Part shown: positions 2,306-41,455 of the stretch, piece by piece | How positions within the stretch are numbered: position 1 is the stretch's first letter | Layout of the letters: every line of letters starts with the position of its first letter | Notes under the pieces: model-generated | Seen by the model: only the letters and a program-made list of their open reading frames with translations | The model's database searches: none | What the model was told of the DNA's origin: nothing | Program-made: the position numbers and the translations under genes | Virus genome (UHGV): UHGV-0258472 | Length of the DNA stretch: 55,135 bases | DNA from: a virus | Reading direction: 5' to 3' (one strand)

Positions 2306-2405
2306 TTTCTTGTCTCCCCTTCCGTCTTCCCTTGACTTATATATAACAAAACGGCACTGCCGAAACAATGCCATTTTGTATACTTTGCGGAGTAGATCAC
2401 GCTTT

Positions 2406-2621
2406 TTATTCATCCTGTCTGAAGGCAACTACAACCTCGCGATCGTCATTCTGAATCAGCCACCAGCCGCGCGCTTTGCTGGGCGCTGCATACCATAAGT
2501 GACCGTAAGTATCCGTAACGACGATAAACGGATTTTTTGGTAATCCGCCTGGTTTTTCCGCTTCGTACTGGCAACCGTCTTCGAAACAATCAAGATCAGA
2601 TCCGTGACACGTTAAAATCAT
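2406..2621 (-). CDS. small protein, paralog family member
   Basis: ATG at 2621 with SD agggg; shares hydrophobic-DD/TD-x-G-x-W motif with neighbours. Confidence 0.45.
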   Translation of the reverse strand: MILTCHGSDLDCFEDGCQYEAEKPGGLPKNPFIVVTDTYGHLWYAAPSKARGWWLIQNDDREVVVAFRQDE

Positions 2622-2624
2622 TTT

Positions 2625-2864
2625 CTACGCCCCTACATACGAAAATGCAGCAAAAGCACCACCACCAGCACGCGCATAAACAAGCGCCGTGCCACACCCC
2701 ATTTTATAAAAGCGCCATAGCTGGCCCTGGTCGTCAGTAATGGCGTGAATATATTCCTGATTCTTTGCGTCAACCAATGCCGCGCCGACTTCGTAGATCT
2801 TGCCATTCTTAAAAAACGCGCTGCATCGTGAATACGTGCATTGATATCTATGATTCCGACTCAT
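2625..2864 (-). CDS. small protein, paralog family member
   Basis: ATG at 2864 with SD aggtgg; G-K-I-Y ... DDxGxLW motif. Confidence 0.45.
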   Translation of the reverse strand: MSRNHRYQCTYSRCSAFFKNGKIYEVGAALVDAKNQEYIHAITDDQGQLWRFYKMGCGTALVYARAGGGAFAAFSYVGA

Positions 2865-2873
2865 AACAACCAC

Positions 2874-3131
2874 CTATTCAGGTTTGCTACCTTCACGCGC
2901 ATGAAGAACAGCGATCTCACGGAAATCATGCACGATGCGATAAATATACAAGCCAGCGGCGTTATTGATATGGATTGCATAAGCGAAATAAACTTTATCG
3001 TCATCGCCAGTTATCGCCATTGCCACATCACCGCACGGTGCGCCGTGGAGTTGAACGCCGCAATAAATCTTCCCTTCTTCGAATCTATTGCGATCGCGCG
3101 TCTGCACTATCTCAAAATATAAATGCTTCAT
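2874..3131 (-). CDS. small protein, paralog family member
   Basis: Internal ATG at 3131 with SD aggggg; G-K-I-Y ... GDDDKVYF motif. Confidence 0.45.
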   Translation of the reverse strand: MKHLYFEIVQTRDRNRFEEGKIYCGVQLHGAPCGDVAMAITGDDDKVYFAYAIHINNAAGLYIYRIVHDFREIAVLHAREGSKPE

Positions 3132-3141
3132 GCTTGCCCCC

Positions 3142-3354
3142 TTAATAACGCACAAAACTAGCGGAAAAATCAGTGCCTGATATTTCGCCACCCCGATAAG
3201 TTGGCATAAATCCCCACACATCCCCACAATCATCAATCAATACAAGCGCCACGCCAACATCACTAATACCATTGCCATAAACGATGTGAACATCATAGAT
3301 TCGCCCAATAGTGAAAACGCTGTCATTGCTTGAATATGAGCATTTAACTTGCAT
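3142..3354 (-). CDS. small protein, paralog family member
   Basis: ATG at 3354 with SD aaggtgg; G-R-I-Y ... DDCGDVWGF motif. Confidence 0.45.
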   Translation of the reverse strand: MQVKCSYSSNDSVFTIGRIYDVHIVYGNGISDVGVALVLIDDCGDVWGFMPTYRGGEISGTDFSASFVRY

Positions 3355-3628
3355 TGTCAGCCACCTTTAAATAATTTTTCGTGTCAATATCTGCCGGATA
3401 CCTGGAAAATTGCGCCAGCCATTGTCCGGTAATGTTTTTCACCAGTGCATAATCAAGATCGCCGCAGTAGAATACCTGGTACATTGTCCCTTCGTTATCA
3501 TCCATAACAAAGACCATCGGATCAGTAGTCGCATTGCGCAGCCTGTGAATCGTGTAAGCCTGGCCAGTAGTGAATTTGTACTCGTTACACGTTGTGCGGC
3601 AAAACATCCGGTCAAAATAGCTTTCCAT
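3344..3628 (-). CDS. hypothetical protein
   Basis: ATG at 3628 overlaps upstream stop (ATGA). Confidence 0.4.
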   Translation of the reverse strand: MESYFDRMFCRTTCNEYKFTTGQAYTIHRLRNATTDPMVFVMDDNEGTMYQVFYCGDLDYALVKNITGQWLAQFSRYPADIDTKNYLKVADNAS

Positions 3629-3879
3629 CAAAAAATCCCCTTATAATCGACCGTGTATTTTGCTATCAGCTTCCATTCACAATAGCTTTCCATGTCGCGC
3701 GGTTGCCAGCCTTTCATGCCTACAGCACCACGCACGCCGTGGCGACGATAATTATCGTTATAGTCAGCTACGCACCACGGCTGAAGCACAAACATGTAAT
3801 TGGCCTCGTTAACCAGGATCGCCACCTGTTTTCCTGTTGCCTTATCTTTCGCCCGGAAATAACTTACCCTGATTTTCAT
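3628..3879 (-). CDS. hypothetical protein (83 aa)
   Basis: ATG at 3879 with SD gaggt. Confidence 0.4.
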   Translation of the reverse strand: MKIRVSYFRAKDKATGKQVAILVNEANYMFVLQPWCVADYNDNYRRHGVRGAVGMKGWQPRDMESYCEWKLIAKYTVDYKGIF

Positions 3880-4090
3880 TTTTAATTACCTCGATCAACA
3901 TTTCTTCTTCCAGGTTAGCCGGACGTTTACGGAATATCCCGGCAAAAACCAGATCATCGAGTAGGTCTTTACGCTTAAATAACCATTCCTTCATTATTAC
4001 CCCGTCATCGCTGCGATATACGACGCCGTTTTTCAAAAAATAAAAAGTGTGGGTATTTGTCTGAAGGTATAGATCTTCGTAAACGTCCAT
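3842..4090 (-). CDS. hypothetical protein (82 aa)
   Basis: ATG at 4090 with SD gaggg. Confidence 0.4.
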   Translation of the reverse strand: MDVYEDLYLQTNTHTFYFLKNGVVYRSDDGVIMKEWLFKRKDLLDDLVFAGIFRKRPANLEEEMLIEVIKNENQGKLFPGER

Positions 4091-4094
4091 GATA

Positions 4095-4322
4095 TTAACC
4101 CTCGACTACTTGCAGCCCGCGCCCCTTATCGCCCACGAAGTCGCCAAGACTGAACGTATACGACCACGCCGGATTGATGTAATGTTCATCAGCACCAGCG
4201 GCAATGAGATCAGCACCGTTAATCATGCAAGTAACATCATCGCTATGAACGACATTAACGACCTTACCAACAACCTGTTTCAATGACGGGTAGCCGTGAT
4301 CGTGCAAGAATTTAACTTTCAT
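4095..4322 (-). CDS. hypothetical protein
   Basis: ORF-track start is TTG; internal ATG at 4322 with purine-rich SD. Confidence 0.35.
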   Translation of the reverse strand: MKVKFLHDHGYPSLKQVVGKVVNVVHSDDVTCMINGADLIAAGADEHYINPAWSYTFSLGDFVGDKGRGLQVVEG

Positions 4323-4590
4323 ATTTCTTTCCCTTGTAAGTGACAGCATCAGTGACCAACAATACCGCCAGCATTTCACCGTCATGTAATGGGTCTGGAA
4401 TAGCAAAAAATATGTCGCTGTTTTTGTCCGGCACTACAACGCGCATATTTCCTTGTTTGTCTTCATGAACAAACCACGGCTTTTCGTGTGGCTCAAACAT
4501 ACCAAAAAGCAATTTAAGATCTATTTCTTCGCCCTTCGTAAATAACGATACATCCGTTGTGGCAATAACTAACGCTTTCTTGTCTGCCAT
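4312..4590 (-). CDS. hypothetical protein
   Basis: In-frame ATGs at 4620 and 4590; 4590 has the better upstream purine run. Confidence 0.4.
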   Translation of the reverse strand: MADKKALVIATTDVSLFTKGEEIDLKLLFGMFEPHEKPWFVHEDKQGNMRVVVPDKNSDIFFAIPDPLHDGEMLAVLLVTDAVTYKGKKYES

Positions 4591-4604
4591 TTTCTTCGCT
4601 CTCA

Positions 4605-4880
4605 TTACTCTGTATCCCATCGTTCAATGCTGATTAAAAAGTCCCGGATAGCGTGGCGCTCGTCGCGCGACGGTTTACGCTTCCGGTAAATTTTAAAATC
4701 AAACCATTCCTTTTCTTGTTCGAAGTCCAGATCGTAAGCAAGCGCCTCAATATATCCGCATTCGTGATACTGGTACGCAACGCCAGCACGAACAAAAAAG
4801 CGGGTTTTATCCCGCTTGTGCTCATAGATACGCATATCAACCCCGTTATGCAGTTGTGTAGCTGTCAACCAGCTTTTCAT
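4605..4880 (-). CDS. hypothetical protein (91 aa)
   Basis: ORF track; ATG at 4880. Confidence 0.4.
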   Translation of the reverse strand: MKSWLTATQLHNGVDMRIYEHKRDKTRFFVRAGVAYQYHECGYIEALAYDLDFEQEKEWFDFKIYRKRKPSRDERHAIRDFLISIERWDTE

Positions 4881-5076
4881 CTTTCATTCTGGCAAGCTGT
4901 GCGATGTTCATCGTGTAGCCGCCATCATCGAAAAGCAATTCCGCCGCCGCGCGACGAAAGGCAATATCATCATGGTTACGTGTCCATGTAGCGATCACAA
5001 CGCGTTTCCCGTTAGTGGCGAACATAGACAATTCATTATCAACAACGTCGATAGCCTGCCAGATTTTTAATTCCAT
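4846..5076 (-). CDS. hypothetical protein (76 aa)
   Basis: ATG at 5076 with SD ggggat. Confidence 0.4.
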   Translation of the reverse strand: MELKIWQAIDVVDNELSMFATNGKRVVIATWTRNHDDIAFRRAAAELLFDDGGYTMNIAQLARMKDEKLVDSYTTA

Positions 5077-5432
5077 GATTTATCCCCGTAGATCTTGAAT
5101 AGTTCGCGCTCTTCCTGGTCTTCAAATATCCCTATGTGCAGATCACGCAGGCGGCGCATTGTGCGGAATCGTGGCCTGAACTCCTGGCTGCGTTTAATGT
5201 ACTTACCGCCAATTGAGTAAATATGCCCGTATGAGTACCATCTATTCCCTACCCATATTTCATATTCTTTGCCTTCGTAATTGAATTTTATCGTTAGCTC
5301 GCCGACTTCAACTATTAACCCTTTGTCAATGATGTCATTAAGCATTTCATCCCATTCTTTGAGGAATGGTTGTTGATAAAAACCAAAAAGCGTATTTGCA
5401 GCATGGCAGAGATAATCAATGATTATTTGCAT
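5067..5432 (-). CDS. hypothetical protein (121 aa)
   Basis: ATG at 5432 with SD ggtga. Confidence 0.45.
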   Translation of the reverse strand: MQIIIDYLCHAANTLFGFYQQPFLKEWDEMLNDIIDKGLIVEVGELTIKFNYEGKEYEIWVGNRWYSYGHIYSIGGKYIKRSQEFRPRFRTMRRLRDLHIGIFEDQEERELFKIYGDKSWN

Positions 5433-5436
5433 ATTA

Positions 5437-5649
5437 TCACCACATCATGTAATAAACGTTCTCATCAGCTAACATGTCAGCTACATCCTGCGTCATGTGC
5501 CTGGCCTCAAGGAAAAAATCCTCATCATGCCATTCACTAACAAGCATACGCGCCCATTTACGGCGCTGGCGCTTATTGCGTCGCAGATCATCAAAAGCCT
5601 TTAATGCTTTGTCGTATGCCCTTACAAGGCGCTTACGGTTACTTTTCAT
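5437..5649 (-). CDS. hypothetical basic protein (70 aa)
   Basis: ATG at 5649 with SD agaggtg. Confidence 0.4.
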   Translation of the reverse strand: MKSNRKRLVRAYDKALKAFDDLRRNKRQRRKWARMLVSEWHDEDFFLEARHMTQDVADMLADENVYYMMW

Positions 5650-5951
5650 TTTTCACCTCTTAGCATCCAATTCACATCACATTTAATTGCGAATACCTTA
5701 ACAGGATCAGGGCCGAACAACGGATGTATGATAGTTTTAACTTCATAGCCCAAATAAGGCAGGTTTATAATCCGGTGTGCTTCGTGGCTGGCTGGATACC
5801 CCAGCTTAATGATCAGGCGTTCATATTCCCGACCCTCCAGACGTTTACGCCAATAGTCATTATAAAGCCGGTATTCCTCAACCTTCTTCCCCGCCCGGAT
5901 AGCGTGGAAGTATTCACCTTTTAAATTCAAATGTAAGTGTTTATTTGCCAT
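5646..5951 (-). CDS. hypothetical protein
   Basis: ATG at 5951 (ORF-track first codon is GTG) with SD agga. Confidence 0.4.
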   Translation of the reverse strand: MANKHLHLNLKGEYFHAIRAGKKVEEYRLYNDYWRKRLEGREYERLIIKLGYPASHEAHRIINLPYLGYEVKTIIHPLFGPDPVKVFAIKCDVNWMLRGEK

Positions 5952-6213
5952 CACTATGATCCTGTAAACAGTCGTTATAACCTTCGATGTATCCGGTTAA
6001 TCCGGTATTACTCACTGACCATTCAGCCGAACGGCGCTTGATGGCCTCGTCCATCGTGATTTCACCTTTGCGATGACATCCGGCATCAATATAGCGGTTA
6101 ACAACCGAAGATAGCCGCCCGCGTAGCTGTTGTGTTCCGGCGTAATATCGGGCCGTATCCGCAAGTTCGTTAATCAACTGGCGGTAAATATGTTCTTTTA
6201 ATTTAGGCTTCAT
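5941..6213 (-). CDS. hypothetical protein
   Basis: Internal ATG at 6213 with SD ggtga; upstream ATG at 6276 has no SD. Confidence 0.4.
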   Translation of the reverse strand: MKPKLKEHIYRQLINELADTARYYAGTQQLRGRLSSVVNRYIDAGCHRKGEITMDEAIKRRSAEWSVSNTGLTGYIEGYNDCLQDHSDGK

Positions 6214-6403
6214 TATCGTCACCACGCTTGTAAATTTTGACAGGCTTAATAGGGATGGCTGGCAATTCGCCTTCATTTAACGCGCTTGCCATACCCAATA
6301 TTAAACGCGCTTCCGCACCAGTGACTTTCTTACACCATGCGCCGCCTGTTTTATCTTCGAACAAGATAACAGCAAACTGATCGTTTATTTCCAGCTTATC
6401 CAT
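6203..6403 (-). CDS. hypothetical protein (66 aa)
   Basis: ATG at 6403 overlaps stop of upstream gene (TAATG); SD ggggtga. Confidence 0.4.
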   Translation of the reverse strand: MDKLEINDQFAVILFEDKTGGAWCKKVTGAEARLILGMASALNEGELPAIPIKPVKIYKRGDDNEA

Positions 6404-7125
6404 TATTCACCCCGTGTCACTCGTTTGATCTCGCTTTCCGCGCGGGCCTCTTCTTTGAATAGCTCCGCTATGGCGTCTTCATAAAAAACCCGGTATTTTT
6501 TCCACCATGTTGATCGGCTCACCGGAAAAACAAGCTGATTAACCGCCTGCCGGACGAGATCTACCGGGAAACGCGAGTACCCGCGCCCGCCGCAATGCTG
6601 GCACGTTTTAAACACTGGCATTTCCGCCGCTTCGCTGGCTGTTTTATCCGGTACTTCGCCGCGCCCCTTGCATTGTTTACAATGATTGCGAACTTTCCCA
6701 TGCCCCTTGCATTTTTTGCAAAGGTGTTTTTCTCCGTAGTCGTCAAACGTAAATTTATATCCGCCGCACTCCATACAAGTTTTTTCCGTCGCGGCGCTTT
6801 GGCAATAATCCCGAAACGCGAAAACGGCAACAAGAATAATGAGATCATTGCGTTTGGCCTCGTCCAGTTCCATAACGTATTCATAATCTTTTGCCATAGC
6901 CCTTAAACGCTCTGTAAGCAAAACTACGGCCTTATGTTTTTCGGCTTGTGATAGTTCCATCTTCCCTAAAAAAGCGCTATAGCCAAGCTCTACGCGCGAT
7001 TGCGCCATTCCTGCGGCAGTTAGCGCATCAGTAGTATTAAGCGCATCCGGGGACGTTCCCCGGCTTTCATCTGACAAACGCGGTGATTTCGGGAAGTGGA
7101 ATTTAAGAATTGATTCCAGATTCAT
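6403..7125 (-). CDS. Q-like late antiterminator candidate with four CxxCxGxG (DnaJ-type) zinc-finger repeats
   Basis: ATG at 7125; translation shows CMECGGYK, CKKCKGHG, CKQCKGRG, CQHCGGRG; overall resemblance to lambdoid prophage Q proteins from memory; sits downstream of RusA/NinG as in lambdoid nin regions. Confidence 0.5.
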   Translation of the reverse strand: MNLESILKFHFPKSPRLSDESRGTSPDALNTTDALTAAGMAQSRVELGYSAFLGKMELSQAEKHKAVVLLTERLRAMAKDYEYVMELDEAKRNDLIILVAVFAFRDYCQSAATEKTCMECGGYKFTFDDYGEKHLCKKCKGHGKVRNHCKQCKGRGEVPDKTASEAAEMPVFKTCQHCGGRGYSRFPVDLVRQAVNQLVFPVSRSTWWKKYRVFYEDAIAELFKEEARAESEIKRVTRGE

Positions 7126-7307
7126 TATTTGCCCCCGTAACGAGCAATAAGGTGTTTACGATCAGAAATAGACTGAACTAACTTTCTCTCAAGCTCTTTC
7201 AATGCAAGCAATTCGCGCATATGAAAAGCCTGGATTTGTCGGACTGTAGCTAAATCATGCTCGTCACGCTGAATATCTATTTGCAGATCTTTAATTTCGT
7301 TTTTCAT
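7125..7307 (-). CDS. hypothetical protein (60 aa)
   Basis: ATG at 7307 with SD gggggtga. Confidence 0.4.
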   Translation of the reverse strand: MKNEIKDLQIDIQRDEHDLATVRQIQAFHMRELLALKELERKLVQSISDRKHLIARYGGK

Positions 7308-7310
7308 TGC

Positions 7311-7712
7311 TCACCCCCACATATTAGTCGCGTATTCGTCAATATCCGGTAACAGGTCTTCGCGCTCGCGTACCTTAATAAACAATCGCCCGCCTTTTGC
7401 CTTCCGGCAGCGAACAATTTTTATAGAATCGATCTGACCGTCGTCGGTCCAGAATCCGGCATAAGTAAGGCTGTCAAAAAGGCATTTGGGGATATTATCC
7501 AGATCTCTGATCCGGTTATCCGGCGGCGCGGCATAAATGGCGATTGCCAGTCGGCAAGATAGGTTAATGTTTAAATTTAATAGCTCGATGATGTCTCTTA
7601 CTTGATCCCGGTATTCCTTCCCCACTTTGCTGATATAGTGAAAACCGCGCGAATGTCGGTAATAGCGATTATTCGATGGCGGGTAAGGCAGGCTAAAAGA
7701 ATATTCATTCAT
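7311..7712 (-). CDS. rusA: RusA-family Holliday junction resolvase
   Basis: Translation MNEYSFSLPYPPSNNRYYRH...RDLDN...GFWTDD matches RusA signature; ATG at 7712 overlaps NinG stop (ATGA). Confidence 0.8.
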   Translation of the reverse strand: MNEYSFSLPYPPSNNRYYRHSRGFHYISKVGKEYRDQVRDIIELLNLNINLSCRLAIAIYAAPPDNRIRDLDNIPKCLFDSLTYAGFWTDDGQIDSIKIVRCRKAKGGRLFIKVREREDLLPDIDEYATNMWG

Positions 7713-8314
7713 GCTGCCTTTCTCCTTAAGGCGTCCAATTTAGCCTGATAGATGTTTATTAGCTCCTTACATTCTGCGATCGTCCATTTATGCGTATCAT
7801 TGTTGTTTTCCAGCGCCACCACCCTGGCGAGGCCAATTTTTCGAATCAGTGCCGGGCGATACCCTCCTATGTTCCCGTCTAATGTCTGGTTGCAGTGCCT
7901 ACATTGTTTATGGCAATTATCCTCGTTAAAGCGAAGATGTCCGGCGGCGGCTACCGTCCTGTAATGACCTGCATCCCACCCGCATTGCTCACCGTAGTAA
8001 GTCCCGCAAGATATACACGGCAAGCGCGCGTCACGTTCGCGAATATAGGCGTTAAATACATTTTGAACTTGTTTGATCCAATAACTACGCGGATTTAACT
8101 GTTTACGCTTCCGGTTGCGTTCTTCCCTCTGGCTATCACGGCGTTTCTTCCGCTCCATAGCCTTCATAGCCTTCTCACGGTCGCGGCATAGCTGGTCAAA
8201 CTTCAGTTCTTCCAGACATTCATCGCTGCACCACGTTTGATTATGATATTTAGGCTCAAAAAAAACGCCGCAGCACTTGCAACGGCGTCTTATGGGTTTT
8301 TTAGGGTTTTGCAT
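7709..8314 (-). CDS. ninG: NinG (Rap) recombination protein
   Basis: Translation ...CKCCGVFF...PRSYWIKQVQNVFNAYIRERD...PCISCGT...WDAGHYRT...LRFNE.N.HKQC..CN closely matches lambda NinG; start moved to ATG 8314 (SD ggggtgg) instead of ORF-track 8404. Confidence 0.85.
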   Translation of the reverse strand: MQNPKKPIRRRCKCCGVFFEPKYHNQTWCSDECLEELKFDQLCRDREKAMKAMERKKRRDSQREERNRKRKQLNPRSYWIKQVQNVFNAYIRERDARLPCISCGTYYGEQCGWDAGHYRTVAAAGHLRFNEDNCHKQCRHCNQTLDGNIGGYRPALIRKIGLARVVALENNNDTHKWTIAECKELINIYQAKLDALRRKAA

Positions 8315-8328
8315 AAAAACCACCCCGA

Positions 8329-8505
8329 TTATTTTTGATTCTCTGTTTCGTTCAGCCTTTCGGCGTGTCCGGCCCTTAGCCAATGTTCTAAGCATTCGTT
8401 GCACTCGTTACAGCCTCCTTTCTTCGTGCTGCATACATTGCACATTGCACGCATAACGCTTTCTCGTTCATAGTCGTCATGCCATTGGTAATTATCAAAA
8501 GGCAT
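8329..8505 (-). CDS. small Cys-rich protein (58 aa, CxxC ... CxxCxxC)
   Basis: ATG at 8505 with strong SD aaaggagag; not in ORF track (under 60 aa). Confidence 0.4.
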   Translation of the reverse strand: MPFDNYQWHDDYERESVMRAMCNVCSTKKGGCNECNECLEHWLRAGHAERLNETENQK

Positions 8506-8664
8506 AATGCTCTCTCCTTTTCAGGTGATTTCTACGCATTTCAGCGCTGCCGGATTTTTAAAGAGCATTTTGTTTGCTTGAAGTATACAAAATGGATACG
8601 TGCTAACAAGGTGTAAAGCGCCATTATGTGACATTCATCACACAATGACGCCATTTTGTAAACT

Positions 8665-9453
8665 TCAGTCCGGCAAAACGCGGTTGAGCGTAGTACGATT
8701 GATGGCCCGGTCGTTAGCCAGGAATACAGCACGGGCGAAGCCACGCGGCGTTAGTGAGCGGATCATCTTTGTTCGCTTTGATTTTCCGCCTAACTTCGCG
8801 TGCTGCTTACTGTCTTCCCATTCATCTGGCATCGGCACAGGACGGAATAGCGGCTGCTTAAATCCATTCCCGCACCAAATACAAGTTTTCTTCGTGTAGG
8901 CGTCGCGGTCGGCAATGTATTCCGGGAAAGCGGGATGTTTATCATCTTCCGGCAGGTAGCCACCGTAAGCGCAAGGATTGAAGATAAAATCCGGTTTACG
9001 CCATAACGTTGACAGCACGCCAACAGGATTTTCAACCATCCACGGCACGTTATACATGTTAGCCAGAGATTCAACCAACATTGCGTTTCTTGCCGCCTTA
9101 TTCTGAAAACAAGGATCTTTTCTGTATTTATCAACGAACCAACGAGCGCCGGACACAGCAAGATCATCACACGGAGGAAAGCCCAGGATAATGTCAGGAT
9201 CTGGATATACAGACAATTCAGGTGAGAACATTACCAGAAAATGGCTATCAATCCAGACGTTAACATATTCAATATTTGGATGAATTATTTTTACACCGTC
9301 ATAATCACCGTGATTAGCGCCGTCATAGTTGAAGCAATAACATTTATAACCAGCGTCCGCCCAATCTTTAACGGCGTACCCGCTGCCGTCGTACAGCGAC
9401 CATACCACCCAATTTCTAAGCCAATTATTTAACCAATGTTTAGCCCTGCTCAT
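8665..9453 (-). CDS. putative DNA (cytosine-5)-methyltransferase-like protein
   Basis: Motifs resembling C5-MTase motif I (LYDGSG), IV (GFPPCDD, PC-type) and VI (ENPVG); ATG at 9453. Confidence 0.5.
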   Translation of the reverse strand: MSRAKHWLNNWLRNWVVWSLYDGSGYAVKDWADAGYKCYCFNYDGANHGDYDGVKIIHPNIEYVNVWIDSHFLVMFSPELSVYPDPDIILGFPPCDDLAVSGARWFVDKYRKDPCFQNKAARNAMLVESLANMYNVPWMVENPVGVLSTLWRKPDFIFNPCAYGGYLPEDDKHPAFPEYIADRDAYTKKTCIWCGNGFKQPLFRPVPMPDEWEDSKQHAKLGGKSKRTKMIRSLTPRGFARAVFLANDRAINRTTLNRVLPD

Positions 9454-10957: not shown

Positions 10958-10966
10958 TACGCCCCC

Positions 10967-11200: not shown

Positions 11201-11204
11201 ATAA

Positions 11205-11645: not shown

Positions 11646-11826
11646 ACATTAACACCGCCTTTTTAAGTGCGCTTAATTCAAAGTGCATCAGACGAAAATG
11701 CTGCACACCACCAATAAGACTAACCTGATAAATATCACCGACACTGTTATAGTAATAACAGCCAAATTGACCGATCCCGGCTAATTTAGCGTTATCCGGT
11801 ATCATGTATTCGCCAACCTTTTTCAT
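11635..11826 (-). CDS. hypothetical protein (63 aa)
   Basis: ATG at 11826 with SD gaggtga. Confidence 0.4.
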   Translation of the reverse strand: MKKVGEYMIPDNAKLAGIGQFGCYYYNSVGDIYQVSLIGGVQHFRLMHFELSALKKAVLMYEV

Positions 11827-12143: not shown

Positions 12144-12242
12144 TTTGGCTTCCTCCGCACCGTAAACCTTTCGATTTCGGTTTACATAACGGATATGCGA
12201 TCATAATACAAAATGTATATTTATGTGATCTGAATCACTCTG

Positions 12243-15604: not shown

Positions 15605-15634
15605 AATGTCACCTCCAGCTGTTTACATTTTGTA

Positions 15635-15925
15635 TTAATGGTAGCGGACTTTATCCAGTGGTTTTTCCCCTAGCTGACGTGGTTGCGTTGCGTGGTAGTA
15701 GTTGCCGCTTTCATTTTCCGTATACCATTTTACTGATCCTTTGCGACGTTCTTTAATGCTATTTGATTTGCATCTTTCCTCGTTTGCAAAGCGAATAGCT
15801 TTATCCACATTGTCTGTTTTATTAATTGCAGGTGATGATTTTCTTTCGTTTTCTCTTTTTATTCTTCTGCGTTCCCTGGCATTCAGTTTACTGTCACATT
15901 TGCCATACATGATTGTAACTGTCAT
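15635..15925 (-). CDS. hypothetical basic protein (96 aa)
   Basis: ATG at 15925 with SD aaggag; first gene after the large non-coding region. Confidence 0.45.
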   Translation of the reverse strand: MTVTIMYGKCDSKLNARERRRIKRENERKSSPAINKTDNVDKAIRFANEERCKSNSIKERRKGSVKWYTENESGNYYHATQPRQLGEKPLDKVRYH

Positions 15926-16406
15926 GATCTGATCTCCTTATATCCTTGATGATACTTAATAAAAAATCATCTTCGTTAATTGCCGCACTTCCAGCGGCTG
16001 ACCAGATTGTTAAAGAATGGCTTAACATCTTTCAACTAATCCCGCAATCATCGCCGTTTCCGGTGTGACCCTGCTCACTCCAAGCAAGCTGACTCGTCGC
16101 CTTGCGTGCGGTTTCGTGGGGGATGTGACGCTTTAGACACCCCATGCGCCTTGTTATCAGTGCCGCTTTCGGTCCCCCATCGGGGAGTTACTCCACGGTT
16201 GACAAGGTGTTAAGCCTGATTTTTAAAGTGCCAGGAAGGCGCTTTTTGTTTCCTGCCTCCTTCCTTTGATTCGCAATATACGCCCTGTGATATACCGAGT
16301 CAATCCATTTTGTATACTTTTTTAAAATATTTTATATATCATTGATATTTAAATTATAAAAACAGTTTTTTGGTTTACGTTTTGGTTATTTTACGGGCAA
16401 AGAAAG

Positions 16407-16428: not shown

Positions 16429-17076
16429 TTATGGCAGGTTTACGATCTTCGCGTCAACTACCACACCTATGATTTTAGATTCTGGATTCATAGGGATTGG
16501 CGGATACAGCGGATTGAGCGAACGTAAAAGCCTTTGACCTCCATCAATAACAAGCTGTTTAAACGTAGGTGTTTGCCCTTCCTCCAGTTGGGCTATAACC
16601 AGTTTTCCGTCAATAGCTGGCGCGTGCGGATCGACAAGTATCATCGTCCCCGCTGGTATACTCAATCCTTGCGGCGCGTTCATTGATTCGCCTTTAGCTA
16701 CCAGCCAATAACTATCATCTGAACAAATAACGCTAGTCGTAACGTGTGGTAATGTTGCTCGCCTTGTATCTTCCATATTGTTTACTGCGTCCTTCCAGTC
16801 AACAACCGGGTAACTACCTAAATCACGCGGCGGCGCTCCCGGTAATGTATTAGAAATAGAATCATCTATGACCATTCCATCGTGTGTAACAGTGAATTGC
16901 CGACGCCCAAGCGCCCGCATGATACGCGCAATATCTTCAAGATTCGGCTCGCGGCGACCGTTCAGCCAGTGTGACAGGCCGCCTTTAGTTATCCCCATGA
17001 GATCCGCGAGTGAATCCTGGCTCATGCCTTGCGCCCGCATGAGTTGCTTTGCTAAGTCGTACCATTTTGTTTTCAT
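16429..17076 (-). CDS. CI-type prophage repressor (XRE HTH plus LexA-like S24 peptidase domain)
   Basis: N-terminal HTH (SQDSLADLMGITKGGLSHWLNGRR) and C-terminal Ser-Lys autopeptidase region (GESM ... KQLVIDG); ATG at 17076. Confidence 0.85.
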   Translation of the reverse strand: MKTKWYDLAKQLMRAQGMSQDSLADLMGITKGGLSHWLNGRREPNLEDIARIMRALGRRQFTVTHDGMVIDDSISNTLPGAPPRDLGSYPVVDWKDAVNNMEDTRRATLPHVTTSVICSDDSYWLVAKGESMNAPQGLSIPAGTMILVDPHAPAIDGKLVIAQLEEGQTPTFKQLVIDGGQRLLRSLNPLYPPIPMNPESKIIGVVVDAKIVNLP

Positions 17077-17100: not shown

Positions 17101-17200
17101 GTTTGACGCAAGTCACAAAACGTATTTTTCAAGCCTTGATCTTAAAACTCCATTCTGTAAACTTGCAGACAAGGTAAGGCCATACTTGCAAGGATGCAAG
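17101..17200. promoter_or_regulatory. candidate operator/promoter region between divergent repressor and rightward genes
   Basis: Repeated (A)CTTGCA(A)G-like half-sites (tgacgcaagtca, acttgcagac, acttgcaaggatgcaag) in the divergent intergenic region. Confidence 0.4.
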
Positions 17201-19933: not shown

Positions 19934-19966
19934 GTATACAAAATGTAAACCTGAGGAAATAACGTT

Positions 19967-21085
19967 ATGTCACAAAGAAAGATCAGCGACGAACAACTGA
20001 TCGCTGAATACAACAATGGGAAAACTTACAAGCAAATAGCCGAAGAATATGGAATGGCAAAACGCAACGTAGAACGCCTGGGCGCACGGCTGGCGAAGCG
20101 CGGTTTAATATCCACGCGCCGCGCACCTGGCTTCGGTGTTAACGGTGAATCATTGCTCGTTGATAAGGATGGCGATGTGATTATGCGCTGGATTAAAACA
20201 GCCCGTGATCGCGACGAAATGGAAAGGCTAATGCAATCGGCTTGCGACGCTTTCACGGAAGAGATACCACGCGCGGAGGCCGTGCCAGTGCCTGAAATTG
20301 ATTTCCAAAAAAGCCTGGCCCTTTATCCGGTATTCGATCTTCATATCGGTGCGCTTGCTCATAAATCTGAATGCGGTGAGAGCTACGACACCGGGATCGC
20401 TGAACGCGTGCTAAATGATTTCTTTGACTACGCGGTAGGCGCTGCGCCAATGTCTGAAAAGGCTGTTTTGCTTCTCGGCGGGGATGTGCTTCACACGGAC
20501 GGGCTATTGCCAGTGACACCATCAAGCAATCACGTCCTGGATTGCGATTCACGCTACGCAAAACTTGTTTATGTGGCGATCCGGTCGGTCCGGCGGGCGG
20601 TCGGGAAAATGTTGTTAAACCACAAGGACGTCGAGATCCAAGTGTTATCCGGCAATCACGACCAGTCAGGAATGATCTGGCTACGTGCTGCGCTGGCTGC
20701 TTTTTACGAAGATGAACCGCGTGTGACGGTTGATGTGTCCCCTGCTATCGTCCACCACACACAGTACGGAAAAACATTCCTTGCCTATCATCACGGTCAT
20801 ACTATCAAAAAACCCGAAAATTTGTTGGCGGCGTGCGTCTCTGACTGGCGGGAGGATTTCGGCAAGTCGTCGGCGGTTTACGCTCATTGCGGGCACTGGC
20901 ATCATCAACGGCTGATTGAATCATCGTTAGGCGTTGTCGAGTATCACGGCACATTAGCTGGCAAAGACGCTTATTCAACGAATGGCGGCTGGCGGTCGCG
21001 GCGGCTGGCGGCGGTAATAATTTACAGTCCTGATCACGGGGAGATCGGGCGCTTTGTTTATTACCCTGAATATTCCATTTTGTAA
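19967..21085 (+). CDS. HTH-domain protein fused to a calcineurin-like metallophosphoesterase
   Basis: N-terminal HTH; phosphoesterase motifs DLHIG, GGDVLHTDG, GNHDQ, HHGH, GHWHH; ATG 19967. Confidence 0.6.
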   Translation: MSQRKISDEQLIAEYNNGKTYKQIAEEYGMAKRNVERLGARLAKRGLISTRRAPGFGVNGESLLVDKDGDVIMRWIKTARDRDEMERLMQSACDAFTEEIPRAEAVPVPEIDFQKSLALYPVFDLHIGALAHKSECGESYDTGIAERVLNDFFDYAVGAAPMSEKAVLLLGGDVLHTDGLLPVTPSSNHVLDCDSRYAKLVYVAIRSVRRAVGKMLLNHKDVEIQVLSGNHDQSGMIWLRAALAAFYEDEPRVTVDVSPAIVHHTQYGKTFLAYHHGHTIKKPENLLAACVSDWREDFGKSSAVYAHCGHWHHQRLIESSLGVVEYHGTLAGKDAYSTNGGWRSRRLAAVIIYSPDHGEIGRFVYYPEYSIL

Positions 21086-21103
21086 ACCTGAGGAAATGCC
21101 ATA

Positions 21104-29098: not shown

Positions 29099-29275
29099 CG
29101 CAATGACTCCATTATGTTAATTAACGGAATAATTCTACCATTTTGTGATCTATGTTACATTTTTGACTTATACAAAATGTATTTATTGATTTATATCAAT
29201 ATACGAAATGTGGTTTTGTCGGATATTTAAGCCACCGGATGAACCGGATGAGCTAACAAGAACGAGGATTAAAAA

Positions 29276-36344: not shown

Positions 36345-36473
36345 TTTCTCACCTTTCGCTTTTTTGTGATCTGCATCACGCTAAATCATACCGAAATGGT
36401 TGATCGCGCTTTTTACAATATGTATATTTTACTCAAACGAAGTGGTAGTTAACAAAATGGCGCGGGGTGATTT

Positions 36474-37253: not shown

Positions 37254-37332
37254 TATGTGTGATCACTACATATTAGAAGTGATTATTATAATAATAGGAT
37301 TATTGTTTATTCTGCTATCAACAATGTAAAAC

Positions 37333-37349
37333 CCCGCTTCGCGCGGGGT
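37333..37349. terminator. bidirectional-looking GC hairpin terminator
   Basis: ccccgcttcgcgcgggg flanked by T-rich sequence on both strands. Confidence 0.45.
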
Positions 37350-37905: not shown

Positions 37906-38072
37906 AAAACCCCCTATAAGTTACATTTTGTATATACCTTTACGCGATTCTACGCGAAAAATGAGATCTTCATCACAATGATTATAGCCAGTTTTCAAAA
38001 TGGCTTCACTTTGGAAATCACATATTGTATACAGAAAGCAAATAAGAAAGACGTTGCACAAAGGGGGATGTT

Positions 38073-38481: not shown

Positions 38482-38616
38482 ATGGCCTGGATCGTAAAAT
38501 GGATGGATAGTAAAGGAGATACATATACTGAACCATTTTTCAAACATACTGACGCAGTATTTGCAAGAAGTGTAAGAGGCGGGAAAATTGAAAGAGGATA
38601 TACAAGTTTTGAGTAA
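38482..38616 (+). CDS. micro-ORF (44 aa), moron cassette A
   Basis: ATG 38482; no clear SD. Confidence 0.25.
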   Translation: MAWIVKWMDSKGDTYTEPFFKHTDAVFARSVRGGKIERGYTSFE

Positions 38617-38654
38617 ATTTATTTATGTGATTAATAGCACAGTGGAGATTGATA

Positions 38655-38834
38655 ATGATTATTAACGAAACGGAAGAATGCAGACGTATTACTCTTAGCA
38701 TTGAGTATGACGAAAGATTATGGCTTGAGTGCGACTGCGAATTGATCGTAATAGATAAAAAGCAAGCCGCAGAACTAATAAAGGCATTACAGCTTTATGT
38801 AAACGGCGAATTTAAAAATGATGAAATTGAATAA
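38655..38834 (+). CDS. hypothetical small acidic protein (59 aa), moron cassette A
   Basis: ATG 38655 with SD agtggaga (ORF-track first codon is TTG). Confidence 0.4.
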   Translation: MIINETEECRRITLSIEYDERLWLECDCELIVIDKKQAAELIKALQLYVNGEFKNDEIE

Positions 38835-38841
38835 AAGATAA

Positions 38842-38860
38842 CCCCGGCACAATGCCGGGG
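38842..38860. terminator. bidirectional rho-independent terminator between cassette A and tape measure gene
   Basis: ccccggcacaatgccgggg hairpin with T-runs on both strands. Confidence 0.55.
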
Positions 38861-38866
38861 TTATGT

Positions 38867-41206
38867 TTATTTGCGACGAGGTTGTAATATTCCGCCTGGT
38901 CTTTGTGATTCCCTTGTTATCATTTTCATTGCTACACGTTCCATTGTCTGCTCAAGTCTGCGGCTGTCATCGTCGCTAAATCCGTTTGTGGTCTGAATGT
39001 TGATATTGACAGGCATACTAATGCCGCCGCCACCGCCAATATCACGCCCAGGAATAATTCTGCCATTCTCGCCAGGGATCATATATTGATTTCCGTTAGA
39101 TGTCTGGAATAGCTCCGGCCTGTTGTGTTCCCCTACACGGTACATATTGCCACCAATGACGCTACCACCATTAAAGCGTCCTCCGCCAAAAATTGACGTC
39201 GCCAGCGACATGATCGCAGAAAGCGCCGCCGCACCAGCCGCCGCCCAGCTACCACCAGTTGACGCAGCCGTTGCCGCCGCTGCCGGGGCCGCCGCCGCAG
39301 CAATCTGGCCTTGTGCCGCTACCGCGCCAGCCGTGGTACTTGCCTGCGTTGCCTTGCTTTGTGTCTCCATCATGATTTGATCTGCTATCCAGTCAGCGGC
39401 TATATCTGAAAGTCTGCTACCAATATTGCCGAGGATATTGCTACCTAAGTTAGCAAAAACATCGCTCAATGATTGAGTACCGTTTAACAGACCAACAAGC
39501 GCATTGCTCATACCACCTTTAAGGCCATTAACGCAATCACCGATCAGGCCGTTAGTGTCGCTTTGCGCCTGCCATTGCTCCCACTTCAGATCGCGGATCT
39601 GCTGCTCATAGGCTAACAATTCCTGTTTCTGTTGCGCTTCGGTAGCCCCCAGGTCGATAAGCATTTGCTTACGAATTGCCCATTCATTCTGTACCTGCTG
39701 AATAGGGTCAACCTCGCCTTTTAGCTGGTCCATCGGGCTAACTATTTGCGACCATTTATCACGCAATTCATCTACAGGGATTTGCGCTAATTCTTCCTTC
39801 AGTTCCTTGCCTATCCCTTTTTGCGCGGCGCGGTACTCAAGGATGGTGATTTTACCCTGGGCGAATGCAGCATCAATGGCCTTGCCGTTCTCTAATGCTT
39901 TGCGCATGGCGGCGGCGTCTTTGTTGTACTGGTCAGAAACGCTTATGCCTTTGTCACCAAGCCGATCAGCTTCTGATTTCTTCTCTTTTTTCGGTTTTTT
40001 CGGCTTATCAACTGGCTGATCGAATCCGGTGATCTTGCCGTCGTTAGCCTCACCCTGTTTCTGCATGAACTCATCATAAGCGGCAGTCGCGTTTTTAATA
40101 TCGTTTGCAAACGTCATAACCTTGCCGACGGTAGGGCCGAATTTTTTCTCGTTGTTGCTGTTTAGCTCTTCCTTGCGTTTATCGACAATTTCCTTCATCC
40201 ATTTGTAGCCATCCATTAGCGCTTTTATTGGCGTTACCATTCTAATGATCTCTTCCGCCACCTCACCAGCCTTAACAGCCACGTCGTCAAACATGTCGAT
40301 GAATTCGCTACCAGCCGTTTTGAGTGTATCGAAGCATGTTTTAGCAAATTTAGCGCCCTCGCCAAGTCCTTTAACGCCCTTCGTGATTAAGTCGATAGCT
40401 GATACCACGCCGTCTGATACGCCGAAAAGATCGTCCAACTGCTCAACAAGGCCCATGATCTCTACTTTAAGCTCATTGATAGCCATACCGGATGTGCGCG
40501 GCAACTGAGCAAACTTATCGTTTGTTTCCTGCGTAGCCGCCTGGATCGCGTTGACCATCCTTTCAGCCGTGATCTTGCCGTCCAGCATTTCTGCGCGGAA
40601 CTGGCCCATTGATAATCCCATCTGGCGGGCCATTGTCTGTACGATGGTCGGGGTGTTCTCAAGAAGGCTGTTGAATTCTTCAGCACGGAGTACGCCGCCG
40701 TCGATAGCCTGGCGGAACTGGCGCATTGAGTTAGACATCTGTTCCGCTGATGCACCACCTAACGCTCCCATTTTCTGAATAGTGCCAACAAGGTTAAGTA
40801 ACTGGCCTTCAGTAGCGGATGTGTTCTTTAATGAGATGGCAAGTCCTTGCCATAATTCGCCAGTATCTTTCAGGCTCTGGCCTGTTTCTTTCGATATTGC
40901 TTTCAGGCCGTCGAAAACCCGTCCGGCGGACTCCGCATCGCCAGTAAGCATTTTGATTTTTACGCGTAGCATTTTTGCTTGTTCCGCCATATCCATAAAT
41001 TGGCGCACTGCTTCCGCAGCAAGTAGCAGATGGATGACCCTGGTCAGTGCTTTGATGGATGTTTTCAGGGTGTTTACCTGGCGGTCAGCCTGTTTTGCGC
41101 CGCGCTCTATACGGTCAAAGGCCTGGTCTGCCTGTCGTTGTGCAACGAGAAGTTGACCAGTTTTTGCATCAACCTCGTAATAAATTGTACCTACACTGGT
41201 AGCCAT
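38867..41206 (-). CDS. tail tape measure protein
   Basis: 779 aa, Ala/Gly/Gln-rich with long helical segments; position upstream of M/L/K/I/J; ATG 41206 with SD gaggt. Confidence 0.8.
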   Translation of the reverse strand: MATSVGTIYYEVDAKTGQLLVAQRQADQAFDRIERGAKQADRQVNTLKTSIKALTRVIHLLLAAEAVRQFMDMAEQAKMLRVKIKMLTGDAESAGRVFDGLKAISKETGQSLKDTGELWQGLAISLKNTSATEGQLLNLVGTIQKMGALGGASAEQMSNSMRQFRQAIDGGVLRAEEFNSLLENTPTIVQTMARQMGLSMGQFRAEMLDGKITAERMVNAIQAATQETNDKFAQLPRTSGMAINELKVEIMGLVEQLDDLFGVSDGVVSAIDLITKGVKGLGEGAKFAKTCFDTLKTAGSEFIDMFDDVAVKAGEVAEEIIRMVTPIKALMDGYKWMKEIVDKRKEELNSNNEKKFGPTVGKVMTFANDIKNATAAYDEFMQKQGEANDGKITGFDQPVDKPKKPKKEKKSEADRLGDKGISVSDQYNKDAAAMRKALENGKAIDAAFAQGKITILEYRAAQKGIGKELKEELAQIPVDELRDKWSQIVSPMDQLKGEVDPIQQVQNEWAIRKQMLIDLGATEAQQKQELLAYEQQIRDLKWEQWQAQSDTNGLIGDCVNGLKGGMSNALVGLLNGTQSLSDVFANLGSNILGNIGSRLSDIAADWIADQIMMETQSKATQASTTAGAVAAQGQIAAAAAPAAAATAASTGGSWAAAGAAALSAIMSLATSIFGGGRFNGGSVIGGNMYRVGEHNRPELFQTSNGNQYMIPGENGRIIPGRDIGGGGGISMPVNINIQTTNGFSDDDSRRLEQTMERVAMKMITRESQRPGGILQPRRK

Positions 41207-41455
41207 AATTTAACCTCATACAAAATGTGATCTATGTCTCTATTTTATACAAAATGGCTTCATTTCAACGAATACATTTTGTATAAAGAAGGTGAAGGAT
41301 GAGAGAGATAAAAGAAGGTCGAAGGATATAAAGGATTAAGACTTGAAGCACAGCTAACCGATGGAACGAGGGAGGCGAAAACCCCTAAAACTAAGGAAAC
41401 AGCAAAGGGATTTAAAAGGCCGGATTAACCGGAGGAAGCAAAAGAGGATAAGAAA

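Follow-up and report, generated by a model that had tools for sequence, protein, structure and literature searches.

The question raised by this phage genome, a window of 55,135 nucleotides, is what reads a short motif that recurs at its gene junctions. The 11-mer CATTTTGTATA, singled out in a preliminary description, does recur where claimed, with eight exact copies in the window (2372, 8584, 16306, 19935, 29169, 37924, 41246 and 41275) against 0.10 expected, and none of 100 shuffles reaches eight copies. When one mismatch is allowed, 18 copies are found against 1.97 expected; the one-mismatch coordinates first given hold to within one base at 12205, 15626, 8652, 21076 and 41217; the site at 29139, CATTTTGTGAT, has two mismatches to the 11-mer and one to the 9-mer core. 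No 9-mer of the window is more over-represented than this core, CATTTTGTA. Of its 14 exact copies, 10 fall within the 10.8% of the window that maximal ORFs leave uncovered, which bears out the intergenic placement. Three of the remaining four are at a gene end or within a doubtful 5' extension, the copy at 25038 being the only clearly coding one.

The symmetry first ascribed to the motif was mis-phased: the 18-bp palindrome CATTTTGTATACAAAATG is absent from the window, where its closest match has three mismatches. The true axis runs through the middle of the A/T tract, and around it lies a 17-bp pseudo-palindrome, GTWTACA-WWW-TGTAWAC, with the 15-bp core ATACA-WWW-TGTAT. With up to three mismatches it is matched 13 times in the window against 2.07 expected, and 19934-19950 is a perfect copy (0 mismatches). 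The half-site TGTAWAC and the inner CA are strongly conserved, the opposite half being weaker. Operator scores are poor for several strongly conserved copies that have a single good half (2372, 8652, 37994 and 41248; nnGCCATTTTGTA); their conservation may have a different cause, such as a position directly upstream of a -35 hexamer.

The window is a mEp021-like (mEpimmI) coliphage, 83-93% identical to mEp021, mEp010/013/044/515/554, MagusPhagus and 57 E. coli prophages, and the motif is found at the same places in about 140 related loci. Core density is about 0.31 per kb in all relatives, and the sites recur at roughly 20 shared locations, where they stay conserved even if flanks or adjoining cassettes differ. 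All available mEp021-like relatives represent a single immunity type. The window has the repressor, the N-like antiterminator and the three nut sites of this group. The published mEp021/mEpimmI description defines nut sites, terminators, att sites and the repressor, and gives neither an operator sequence nor this repeat (PMC11893012). The repressor, Rep021, confers immunity; according to that description it has no Ala-Gly cleavage site of the usual kind and its lysogens are not UV-inducible (PMC11893012), so that its biology may differ from that of lambda CI.

We consider it probable that the motif is the core of a 17-bp operator bound by the phage's own lambda-CI-type repressor, a member of the Rep021 family with HTH_3 and S24 domains. 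The candidate sites, scored with a position weight matrix (PWM) described below, are collected in Table 1. The product of the repressor gene has Pfam matches to HTH_3 (3e-13) and Peptidase_S24 (2e-19), its best PDB match is the lambda repressor, and it is 96% identical to the commonest homologue cluster.

Table 1 Candidate operators and associated features in the window (D1-D4, divergent regions of the tail cluster)
Position	Feature	Sequence	PWM (bits)	Location
2367..2383	one-good-half copy	AATGCCATTTTGTATAC		accessory region between Q and lysis genes
8583..8599	putative operator	GTATACAAAATGGATAC	15.5	covers -10 of promoter-like TTGTTA-16-TATACT (- strand)
8647..8663	one-good-half copy	GACGCCATTTTGTAAAC	<8	same intergenic region as 8583..8599
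12204..12220	strongest putative operator	TAATACAAAATGTATAT	22.0	upstream of gene 11925-12143
15621..15637	putative operator	GTTTACATTTTGTATTA	16.0	within operon
16275..16303 (-)	PR-like early promoter	TTGACT-17-TATATT
16301..16317	putative PR operator	CAATCCATTTTGTATAC	16.6
16429..17076 (-)	cI-type repressor gene, Rep021 homologue, HTH_3 + Peptidase_S24			proposed motif binder
17111..17127	putative operator	AGTCACAAAACGTATTT	15.1	between cI and + strand early operon; region conserved
17146..17162	weak putative operator	CATTCTGTA	8.5	over -10 of PL-like promoter TTGATC-16-TAAACT
19934..19950	perfect dyad	GTATACAAAATGTAAAC	17.0	between variable gene slot and conserved 372-aa gene
21071..21087	weaker copy	TATTCCATTTTGTAAAC	11.3	directly upstream of helicase gene
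29168..29184	putative operator	TTATACAAAATGTATTT	18.0	D1 (tail-fibre gene vs lipoprotein cassette)
29199-29215	second D1 copy		13.2	D1
36411..36427	putative operator	TTTTACAATATGTATAT	16.9	D2 (tail gene L vs cassette)
37919..37935	putative operator	AGTTACATTTTGTATAT	16.6	D3, adjoining start of tail gene M
37991..38032	putative operator pair			D3; centres 25 bp apart
41216..41232	third D4 copy		10.5	D4
41245-41261 + 41270-41286	putative operator pair		10.0 + 17.8	D4; centres 25 bp apart

In the immunity region, the PR operator reads GTATACAAAATGGATTG on the minus strand, ending in the 3 bp with which the -35 hexamer TTGACT begins. Across 23 distinct relatives neither its core nor its 3' flank changes, and the promoter hexamers are also conserved while the spacer varies. 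This promoter is the joint-best sigma-70 consensus match (10/12) in positions 1-20000, and it points into nutR1 (boxA-like 16218-16230) and the N-like gene at 15635-15925. On the other side of cI, the centre of 17111..17127 lies about 43 bp upstream of the cI ATG (17076), for which a leaderless PRM, TTGCGT-17-TAGGGT, is predicted from the sequence. The weak site at PL is a perfect CATTTTGTA in most relatives, with the exact core at 34 loci. The arrangement is atypical, in that PR has only one site, the PL -10 site is weak, and the spacing of the two PL-region sites is 35 bp, not 24-25.

Further sites are found in the early operons and the accessory region. The one at 8583..8599 has a single mismatch to the dyad, is kept in 36 distinct relatives, and lies 18 nt upstream of the nutR2 boxA (8553-8565) and also upstream of ninG-rusA-Q; its neighbour at 8647..8663 adjoins a perfect CRP-like palindrome (8627-8642) and has the exact core at 44 loci. 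The strongest site, found at 42 loci, adjoins a CRP-like site (12224-12239) and is paired with a weaker one at 12180-12196 (11.3 bits; centres 24 bp apart). At 15621..15637 the site falls where only 30 bp separate the N-like gene from the small gene ahead of erf, and it is present in all loci covering that position. At 19934..19950, at least six different upstream genes among the relatives each end in TATACA-WWW-TGTAAAC; the arms TATACA and TGTAAAC of this site, centred on 19942, are kept, whereas the 3-4 bases between them vary or are switched between AAA and TTT. The copy at 21071..21087 contributes the TAA stop codon of the 372-aa gene, is invariant in 32 distinct relatives, and is retained in mEp021 despite an HNH gene inserted upstream. 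The copy at 2367..2383 abuts a promoter-like TTGTTT-17-TATATA on the minus strand; its exact core is found at 17 loci only, many relatives having substitutions.

As the preliminary description had it, copies occur at all four antisense cassettes of the tail cluster, with operator matches in D1, D2, D3 and D4. The D2 site has two mismatches to the dyad, and most relatives keep the D3 site at 37919..37935, which is degenerate in the mEp021 subgroup. In the D3 pair, the weak copy (37991-38007) is in the spacer upstream of an invariant TATAAT facing gene M, and the strong copy (38016-38032, 14.8 bits) lies over the -10 of the cassette-facing promoter TTCACT-17-TATACA. The D4 pair makes a 44-bp palindrome between the tape-measure gene and the antisense cassette, and about 30 distinct relatives, with at least four different cassettes among them, keep both copies with little or no change. 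The third D4 copy is not conserved in most relatives, and is therefore probably dispensable.

The assignment to a CI-like phage regulator, one of several functions first suggested, draws its support from comparison with other prophages. CI homologues at 47-57% identity retain the recognition helix ITKGGLSHWLNGRREP, and their loci carry the same site family. In a sister phage with different Cro and Rep (L145), the family is found at equivalent places, and in three unrelated prophage backbones it takes up both the gap between cro and cI and the stretch directly after cI. A Citrobacter lambdoid prophage (L147) has three sites in a 100-bp cro-cI gap and two downstream of cI, these sites being 25 bp apart and overlapping the -35 TTGACG by 3 bp and the -10 TATTGT; an Enterobacter prophage (L149) has three upstream and three downstream of cI, followed by boxA; and L150 has two or three beside cI, with a 25-bp pair further on. 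We trained the PWM on only the 15 foreign-prophage sites; these had been chosen by a pattern derived from the window motif, so that what counts as independent evidence is how they cluster and are arranged around cI rather than the sequence they have. In the window the matrix finds 13 sites of at least 12 bits (1.52 expected) and 11 operator-grade sites of at least 14.5 bits (0.25 expected), and at the 12-bit threshold it finds 11 sites each in mEp021 and MagusPhagus. Outside the immunity region it detects no site in L147 or L150, and a T1-like phage has none anywhere. The pairs at 12188/12212, 37999/38024 and 41253/41278, spaced by 24-25 bp, match the foreign operator pairs.

An unlikely alternative, though the best of those considered, is that the motif is a part of sigma-70 promoter architecture, read by host RNA polymerase without a dedicated regulator. 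In one orientation CATTTTG-TAWACT would supply a -10 hexamer, and in the other TACAAAATGG, spanning -46 to -38 immediately before the -35, would act as an A tract resembling a proximal UP element. The motif does overlap hexamers of PR, PL and a third promoter, P8586 (TTGTTA-16-TATACT): it serves as the -10 at P8586 (p=0.002) and PL (p=0.011), and lies 0-3 nt upstream of a -35 at PR (p<0.001), 8652, 37994 and 41248 (p<0.04), the latter placement giving p<0.1 at 8 of 21 sites; D3 and D4 also have the block TACAAAATGGCTTCAC in common. The promoter element first suggested thus survives as an overlap of many copies with promoter-like -35 and -10 hexamers, but nothing is conserved at a fixed promoter distance, including the -35 distance from the motif, and orientation relative to transcription is inconsistent across sites. 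The universal sites 15626, 19937 and 21076 have no promoter-like partner in either orientation. Polymerase contacts would leave unexplained the invariant C, A, G, T and A positions, the dyad and the 25-bp pairs, as well as the recurrence of the same 15-17-mer between cro and cI in unrelated prophages whose CI has this recognition helix.

It is very unlikely that the site belongs to a host transcription factor rather than a phage protein. The motif presumably resembles the OmpR C1 half-site TTTACATTTTG, TyrR boxes and other A/T-rich boxes, and the same regions do seem to contain host-factor sites, namely CRP-like palindromes and a perfect FNR box. The "tgtgatct" element, originally taken as linked to the motif, does exist, but as a CRP-like palindrome enriched in its own right: TGTGA-N6-TCACA with at most one mismatch has 8 matches in the window against 1.37 expected, and the GATC near motif copies belongs to its half-sites (TGTGATCT). 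Against a host factor, the site family follows the CI recognition helix over four phage backbones and several host genera, and it occupies classical operator positions in multiple copies overlapping -35 and -10; we know of no host factor with this 17-bp dyad.

We regard as equally improbable that the copies are linker or boundary sequences, providing short homology for module and cassette exchange between related phages. An alignment breakpoint at 19920-19935 falls exactly on the motif in 31 loci, the motif always ends the variable slot upstream of 19934-19950, at least four D4 cassette types abut the same pair, and TGTAAACCTGAGGAAAT is common to 19937 and 21076. The recombination boundary proposed earlier fares poorly nonetheless, as only this one of about 20 major homology-breakpoint clusters meets the motif, with a further four loci coinciding at 21060; the large clusters at 17370, 18075, 18975-19575 and 24165-25245 have no motif, most motif sites are not breakpoints, and a conserved regulatory site beside a variable gene would look identical. 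The suggested methylation-sensitive switch for phage Dam-like or cytosine methyltransferases deserves almost no credence, despite a Dam-like enzyme encoded at 10418-10957 (annotated in relatives) and GATC close to several copies, since the motif itself lacks GATC, its sole invariant C is that of CA, GTATAC is found in just 4 of 14 core copies, and the neighbouring GATC is part of the CRP-like half-site.

On the preferred reading, CI-type repressor dimers would bind these sites, and the lytic counterpart of the repressor could be an additional binder. Such operators are not described in the literature searched, and their placement is unusual, as they are most likely dispersed over at least 12-15 places and not just beside the repressor gene; in the Citrobacter, Enterobacter and metagenome lambdoid prophages with the same CI recognition helix, operators are found only in classical OR/OL positions. 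The repressor would contact the PR -35 (3-bp overlap), the PL -10, a site about 43 bp upstream of the cI start, the -10 of the third promoter, which precedes nutR2 by 18 nt, isolated sites in the very short gaps within the early operons, and 24-25-bp pairs in the divergent regions between tail genes and antisense cassettes. In a lysogen, its occupancy of all sites would silence every internal sigma-70 promoter able to drive N, Q, replication or tail genes, and may in addition determine the output of the divergent cassette promoters.

The closest parallels are the lambda-type CI/Cro operators, OL1-3 and OR1-3 of lambda, P22 and 434. These too are pseudo-palindromic over 17 bp, one half being a strong "consensus" and the other weaker, they are bound by an HTH + S24 repressor, as we infer here, and they overlap the -35 and -10 of the early promoters flanking cI. 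Lambda OR2 overlaps the PR -35 by 3 bp and lies about 42-43 bp upstream of the cI start (PRM), and here too neighbouring sites are 24-25 bp apart and one is found at about 42-43 bp from cI. In contrast, the sequence ATACA-WWW-TGTAT is new, the early promoters have one or two sites instead of three, and most sites are far from the immunity region, in early operons, before a third nut site and in the late tail-gene cluster. Dispersal of this kind is found in P1, where more than 12 17-bp C1 operators are scattered over the genome, so that one immunity repressor has many operators at or near promoters of separate transcription units; the P1 sites, however, are asymmetric and bound by a C1 monomer of unrelated fold, whereas those described here are pseudo-palindromes with a lambda-CI-type repressor. 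The gp71 stoperators of mycobacteriophage L5, which are asymmetric 13-mers, and the 17-bp conserved inverted repeats (CIRs) of Streptomyces phage phiC31 likewise number in the tens, in small intergenic gaps of early and late regions, some of them inside operons away from promoters, as are 15621-15637, 19934-19950 and 21071-21087. The phiC31 CIRs also share the 17-bp inverted-repeat form, whereas L5 stoperators have a strict orientation relative to transcription that is not seen here, and both phages have repressors of unrelated families and hosts among the Actinobacteria.

The motif that the preliminary description had reported to recur at gene junctions is strongly enriched in the window, and its coordinates proved correct to within one base. 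The sequence CATTTTGTATA occurs in eight exact copies against 0.10 expected (18 against 1.97 with up to one mismatch), and the core CATTTTGTA is the top over-represented 9-mer of the window, with 14 copies. Ten of these 14 lie outside maximal ORFs, a fraction that makes up 10.8% of the window, and three of the remaining four fall at the ends of genes or in ORF extensions that are doubtful. All relatives examined have a core density close to 0.31 per kb: a first count gave 255 copies in 826 kb, and a later one 659 copies over ~140 loci, at ~20 recurrent locations.

The 18-bp palindrome proposed earlier has no occurrence in the window, and of the half-sites sought at other offsets only the intrinsic TACA...TGTA frame was recovered. 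The pattern GTWTACA-WWW-TGTAWAC is matched 13 times at up to three mismatches (2.07 expected in the window), perfectly at 19934-19950 and with one mismatch at 8583-8599. This dyad-symmetric site of about 17 bp has half-sites one helical turn apart, as expected of a lambda-type operator. In relatives, at least six different genes are found 5' of the conserved 372-aa gene that starts at 19967, and all of them terminate in TATACA-(AAA/TTC/TTT/ATT)-TGTAAAC. Because the arms of this site, centred at 19942, are kept while its centre varies or is flipped, we describe the motif as a 17-bp pseudo-palindrome centred on an A/T tract. When sites are compared across locations, little or no variation is seen in the right half (TGTAWA) and the inner CA, and the left half is weaker, which resembles the consensus and non-consensus halves of lambda operators.

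The layout of the window was assigned from annotated relatives and ORFs, and is listed below with the regulatory features. Identity to the window is 83-93% for mEp021, a further five mEp phages, MagusPhagus and 57 prophages of E. coli; the mEp021 group has been reported to be as frequent in human gut isolates as lambdoid phages (PMC11893012). The first gene of the plus-strand operon, a possible Cro-like lytic partner, gives a weak HTH_36 match in the window, and encodes an HTH_3 protein in the sister group.

Genome layout, predicted promoters and candidate regulatory sites in the window
Feature	Position	Strand	Remarks
cI	16429-17076	-	from annotated relatives and ORFs
Minus-strand early operon	~16300 downward	-	N-like gene, erf, ssb, dam, ninG, rusA, Q (6403-7125)
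Lysis, head and tail genes	across window ends, to 26537	-	
Plus-strand early operon	17306-25066	+	with replication genes
int	25024-26292		
Four short cassettes	within tail genes	+	
PR, TTGACT-17-TATATT	16303-16275	-	tied-best sigma-70 match (10/12) in first 20 kb
Operator at PR	16301-16317		shares 3 bp with the -35
PL, TTGATC-16-TAAACT			
Operator at PL	17146-17162		over the -10; weak in window, core perfect in most relatives
Strong operator	17111-17127		centre ~43 bp upstream of cI ATG
Third promoter, TTGTTA-16-TATACT	8609-8582		18 nt upstream of nutR2 boxA
Operator at third promoter	8583-8599		over the -10
boxA-like element, C[T/A]CTTTAAAAATC	8553-8565	-	matches published nutR2
boxA-like element	16218-16230	-	same boxA pattern; matches published nutR1
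boxA-like element	17244-17256	+	same boxA pattern; matches published nutL
Intra-operon sites	15621-15637, 19934-19950, 21071-21087		in gaps of 18-33 bp; without promoter partner
CRP-like palindromes	8627-8642 (perfect), 12224-12239, 16064-16079, 17102-17117, 29144-29159, 36365-36380, 37962-37977, 38626-38641		

The product of cI carries HTH_3 and Peptidase_S24 domains, and lambda CI is its best match among solved structures. CI homologues with 47-57% identity retain the recognition helix ITKGGLSHWLNGRREP unchanged or almost unchanged, as does every mEp-like relative found, and P22-C2-like homologues do not keep it. We compared the genomic context of four homologues with the helix retained, and the same site family was found around cI in all four of these other backbones; within this comparison of helix-keeping homologues, the operator goes with the recognition helix. 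The sister phage group (L145/L146) has the same overall layout with a different Cro (HTH_3) and replication protein; its copies of the motif lie in the cro-cI gap, at PR, ahead of erf and ninG, and at other places. A Citrobacter lambdoid-type prophage (L147/L148), whose backbone is different (DEAD-box helicase, primase, Q, holins), has three sites in its 100-bp cro-cI gap, two downstream of cI and almost none elsewhere. Of the downstream two, whose centres are 25 bp apart, ATCCGTTTTGTATTG shares 3 bp with the -35 TTGACG and AATACGTTATGTATTG lies on the -10 TATTGT. An Enterobacter locus (L149) has three sites on each side of cI, followed by a boxA. In a Rac-like lambdoid element from a metagenome (L150), two or three sites adjoin cI, and the intergenic region that follows contains a pair spaced at 25 bp.

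A PWM trained solely on these foreign sites, 15 in number and located by a search pattern that the window's motif had supplied, gave 13 sites in the window at ≥12 bits (1.52 expected, maximum of 5 in 100 simulations) and 11 at ≥14.5 bits (0.25 expected). At ≥12 bits, mEp021 and MagusPhagus had 11 sites each and L147 and L150 only their immunity-region training sites. Since the foreign sites were found via the window-derived pattern, the independent evidence is their clustering and geometry around cI, and not their sequence. A T1-like Klebsiella phage that shares one exonuclease gene with the window had zero motif copies and zero PWM sites at either threshold; this phage (L098; vB_Kpn_K50PH164C1, OY978835.1) carries its own ~16-bp repeat, AGCACGAATTGCTAAA, in ~10 copies. 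The earlier suggestion of a binding site for a phage CI-like regulator is thus favoured by the shared site family around cI in helix-sharing backbones, and a Rep021-type CI, the lambda-CI-type repressor family to which the cI product belongs, would bind the motif sites.

The proposed operators at the early promoters flanking cI lie on predicted -35 or -10 hexamers, as in lambda. Both PR and PL are consensus predictions backed by the pattern of conservation; at PR, the hexamers are conserved in relatives and the spacer is variable. The 3-bp overlap with the -35, which is how lambda OR2 is placed at PR, is common to PR, where repression is required, and the cassette promoters. Lambda-type early promoters each have several neighbouring operators at intervals of about 23-25 bp, which allows cooperative binding. 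In the window, PR has a single site and the PL region two, 35 bp apart, and pairs at 24-25 bp occur elsewhere in the window (12188/12212, 37999/38024 and 41253/41278) and likewise in the foreign OL/OR regions; such paired sites would be bound cooperatively. The cI transcript may be leaderless, starting from TTGCGT-17-TAGGGT (17076-17110), which stops 6 nt short of the ATG at 17076. Another in-frame ATG of cI occurs at 17065, within the sequence CATTTTGTT.

Each of the three boxA-like elements lies 10-75 nt downstream of an operator-bearing promoter-like site, and therefore nutR2 may have its own repressor-controlled promoter. This arrangement implies three early transcription units under the repressor, and offers a possible explanation for the presence of three nut sites, with one operator-bearing promoter each. 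Close to the third promoter, at 8616-8651, the arms of a long inverted repeat (GGCGCCATTATGTGAC...ATCACACAATGACGCC) are conserved and its loop varies among 36 distinct relatives. The repeat contains the perfect CRP-like site, corresponds to a predicted terminator in mEp021, and may act as an RNA hairpin or as a site for a protein.

Operators are also present in every divergent region where a tail gene and an antisense cassette meet, in agreement with the earlier placement of the motif in the gaps of all four cassettes. In the fourth region (D4, 41245-41286) a 25-bp pair forms a 44-bp palindrome that varies little or not at all among ~30 distinct relatives carrying four or more different cassettes; a third copy, at 41216-41232, is not conserved. 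In the third region (D3) one copy of a 25-bp pair (37991-38032) falls in a promoter spacer, 5' of an invariant TATAAT that points towards the tail gene M, and the other on the -10 of the promoter directed at the cassette. Several conserved copies in which one half alone is good have poor operator scores. CI binding would silence the internal promoters in the lysogen, and might act in either direction at the cassette promoters.

The tgtgatct element described as linked to the motif is real, but it is half of a separate palindrome, TGTGA-N6-TCACA, which is enriched in its own right (eight matches at up to one mismatch against 1.37 expected in the window) and, judged by sequence, fits the CRP-site pattern. 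Most of these CRP-like palindromes share regulatory gaps with the motif, six of the eight lying within 40 bp of an operator copy, and the one in D3 has both halves conserved and its central six bases variable in relatives. In the first divergent region (D1), a perfect FNR-type box, TTGATTTATATCAA (29186-29199), is centred 41.5 bp upstream of the start predicted from a -10-like GATATT (29222-29227), ahead of a lipoprotein cassette gene (29276-29524, phrog_12984), which suggests anaerobic control of this gene. Strong GC-rich hairpins (29530-29550, 37331-37349, 38838-38864 and 41983-42008) each close the 3' end of one antisense cassette; most are predicted terminators on both strands, through which the late transcript must read. 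The candidate repressor, CRP-like and FNR-like sites mark the antisense cassettes as separately regulated units, and their regulation is relevant to prophage gene expression in the gut.

The reading of the motif as a promoter element, also raised in the preliminary description, agrees with the copies on the -35 of PR and the -10 of PL, but not with the lack of a fixed register and of co-orientation expected of a sigma-70 or UP element. Depending on the site, the motif covers the -10, falls within the spacer or precedes the -35, and an alignment of the 14 core copies gives a sharp 13-15-bp motif with no conserved position at the -35 distance. Among sites with unambiguous local direction, five point one way and three the other by our own count, and promoter partners sought for the copies at 15626, 19937 and 21076 were not found. 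A simple -10 promoter was rejected as a general explanation because orientations conflict and a -35 signal is absent. An asymmetric site of fixed orientation, such as an L5 stoperator, does not describe a pseudo-palindrome that flips at 19942 in relatives.

The proposal of a modular recombination boundary was not borne out: on comparison with 50 relatives, homology breakpoints hit the motif at one cluster only, 19920-19935, and the other major clusters lie away from it. The segment 18975-19935 is a variable gene slot, occupied in the window by a Zn-ribbon (DUF4379/CapR) plus T5orf172 protein, in UMNK88 by an Ant-like antirepressor, and by four or more other alternatives in further relatives. 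mEp021 has an HNH endonuclease gene inserted immediately 5' of the helicase gene, and retains the last ~25 nt and the motif. An exact 13-bp direct repeat, TATTTGGTACACA (26236-26248 and 26467-26479; 0.06 expected), has one copy within the integrase gene (start 26292), at its 5' end, and a second in the gap upstream, and may represent att-related or arm-type sites.

TGTAAAC as a separate motif is weak (13 matches against 8 expected), and a translation-initiation role of TATACAAAATG is contradicted by inconsistent orientation and by an ATG that opens ORFs of 1-6 codons at most sites. Terminator T-tracts would have a GC hairpin upstream, which is absent, and replication-initiator iterons are dismissed as the ori repeats are unrelated to the motif. 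The latter, four tandem ~22-bp repeats (GGGGGTAGTGACACAGAGTCACC-like) at 17924-18013 inside the replication-initiator gene, are probably the origin iterons.

The motif is enriched, conserved and dyad-symmetric, with observed positions relative to consensus promoters, and in other phage backbones it is found at the classical positions of operators, together with a single CI recognition helix. As a sequence element it appears to work and to look like a lambda-type operator. The published description of the mEp021 group gives no operator sequence (PMC11893012), and a literature search with the motif sequence strings returned unrelated matches only. Our analysis provides a defined candidate sequence, open to experiment, for the operators of this group's immunity repressor, in a system that is easy to test because a pRep021 plasmid and lysogens already exist.

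Dispersed-operator systems are represented by P1 C1, the L5 stoperators and the phiC31 CIRs. The window has more than 10 mostly intergenic sites distributed over the genome, the 11 at ≥14.5 bits spanning 8583-41286, an arrangement that resembles these three systems. We consider it a serious possibility, at slightly less than an even chance, that a lambda-CI-type repressor has here evolved a P1/L5-like layout, with at least 11 dispersed operators that include a third CI-controlled early promoter for nutR2-ninG-Q, roadblock-like intra-operon sites and 25-bp pairs in compact bidirectional promoters between tail genes and cassettes. If true, the cassettes and parts of the late operon would answer directly to the repressor, beyond the N and Q cascades. 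The repressor family differs from those of P1 C1, L5 and phiC31, and the site symmetry from that of P1 and L5; the results suggest that an E. coli system of the lambda-CI type shares the dispersed-operator logic of these phages.
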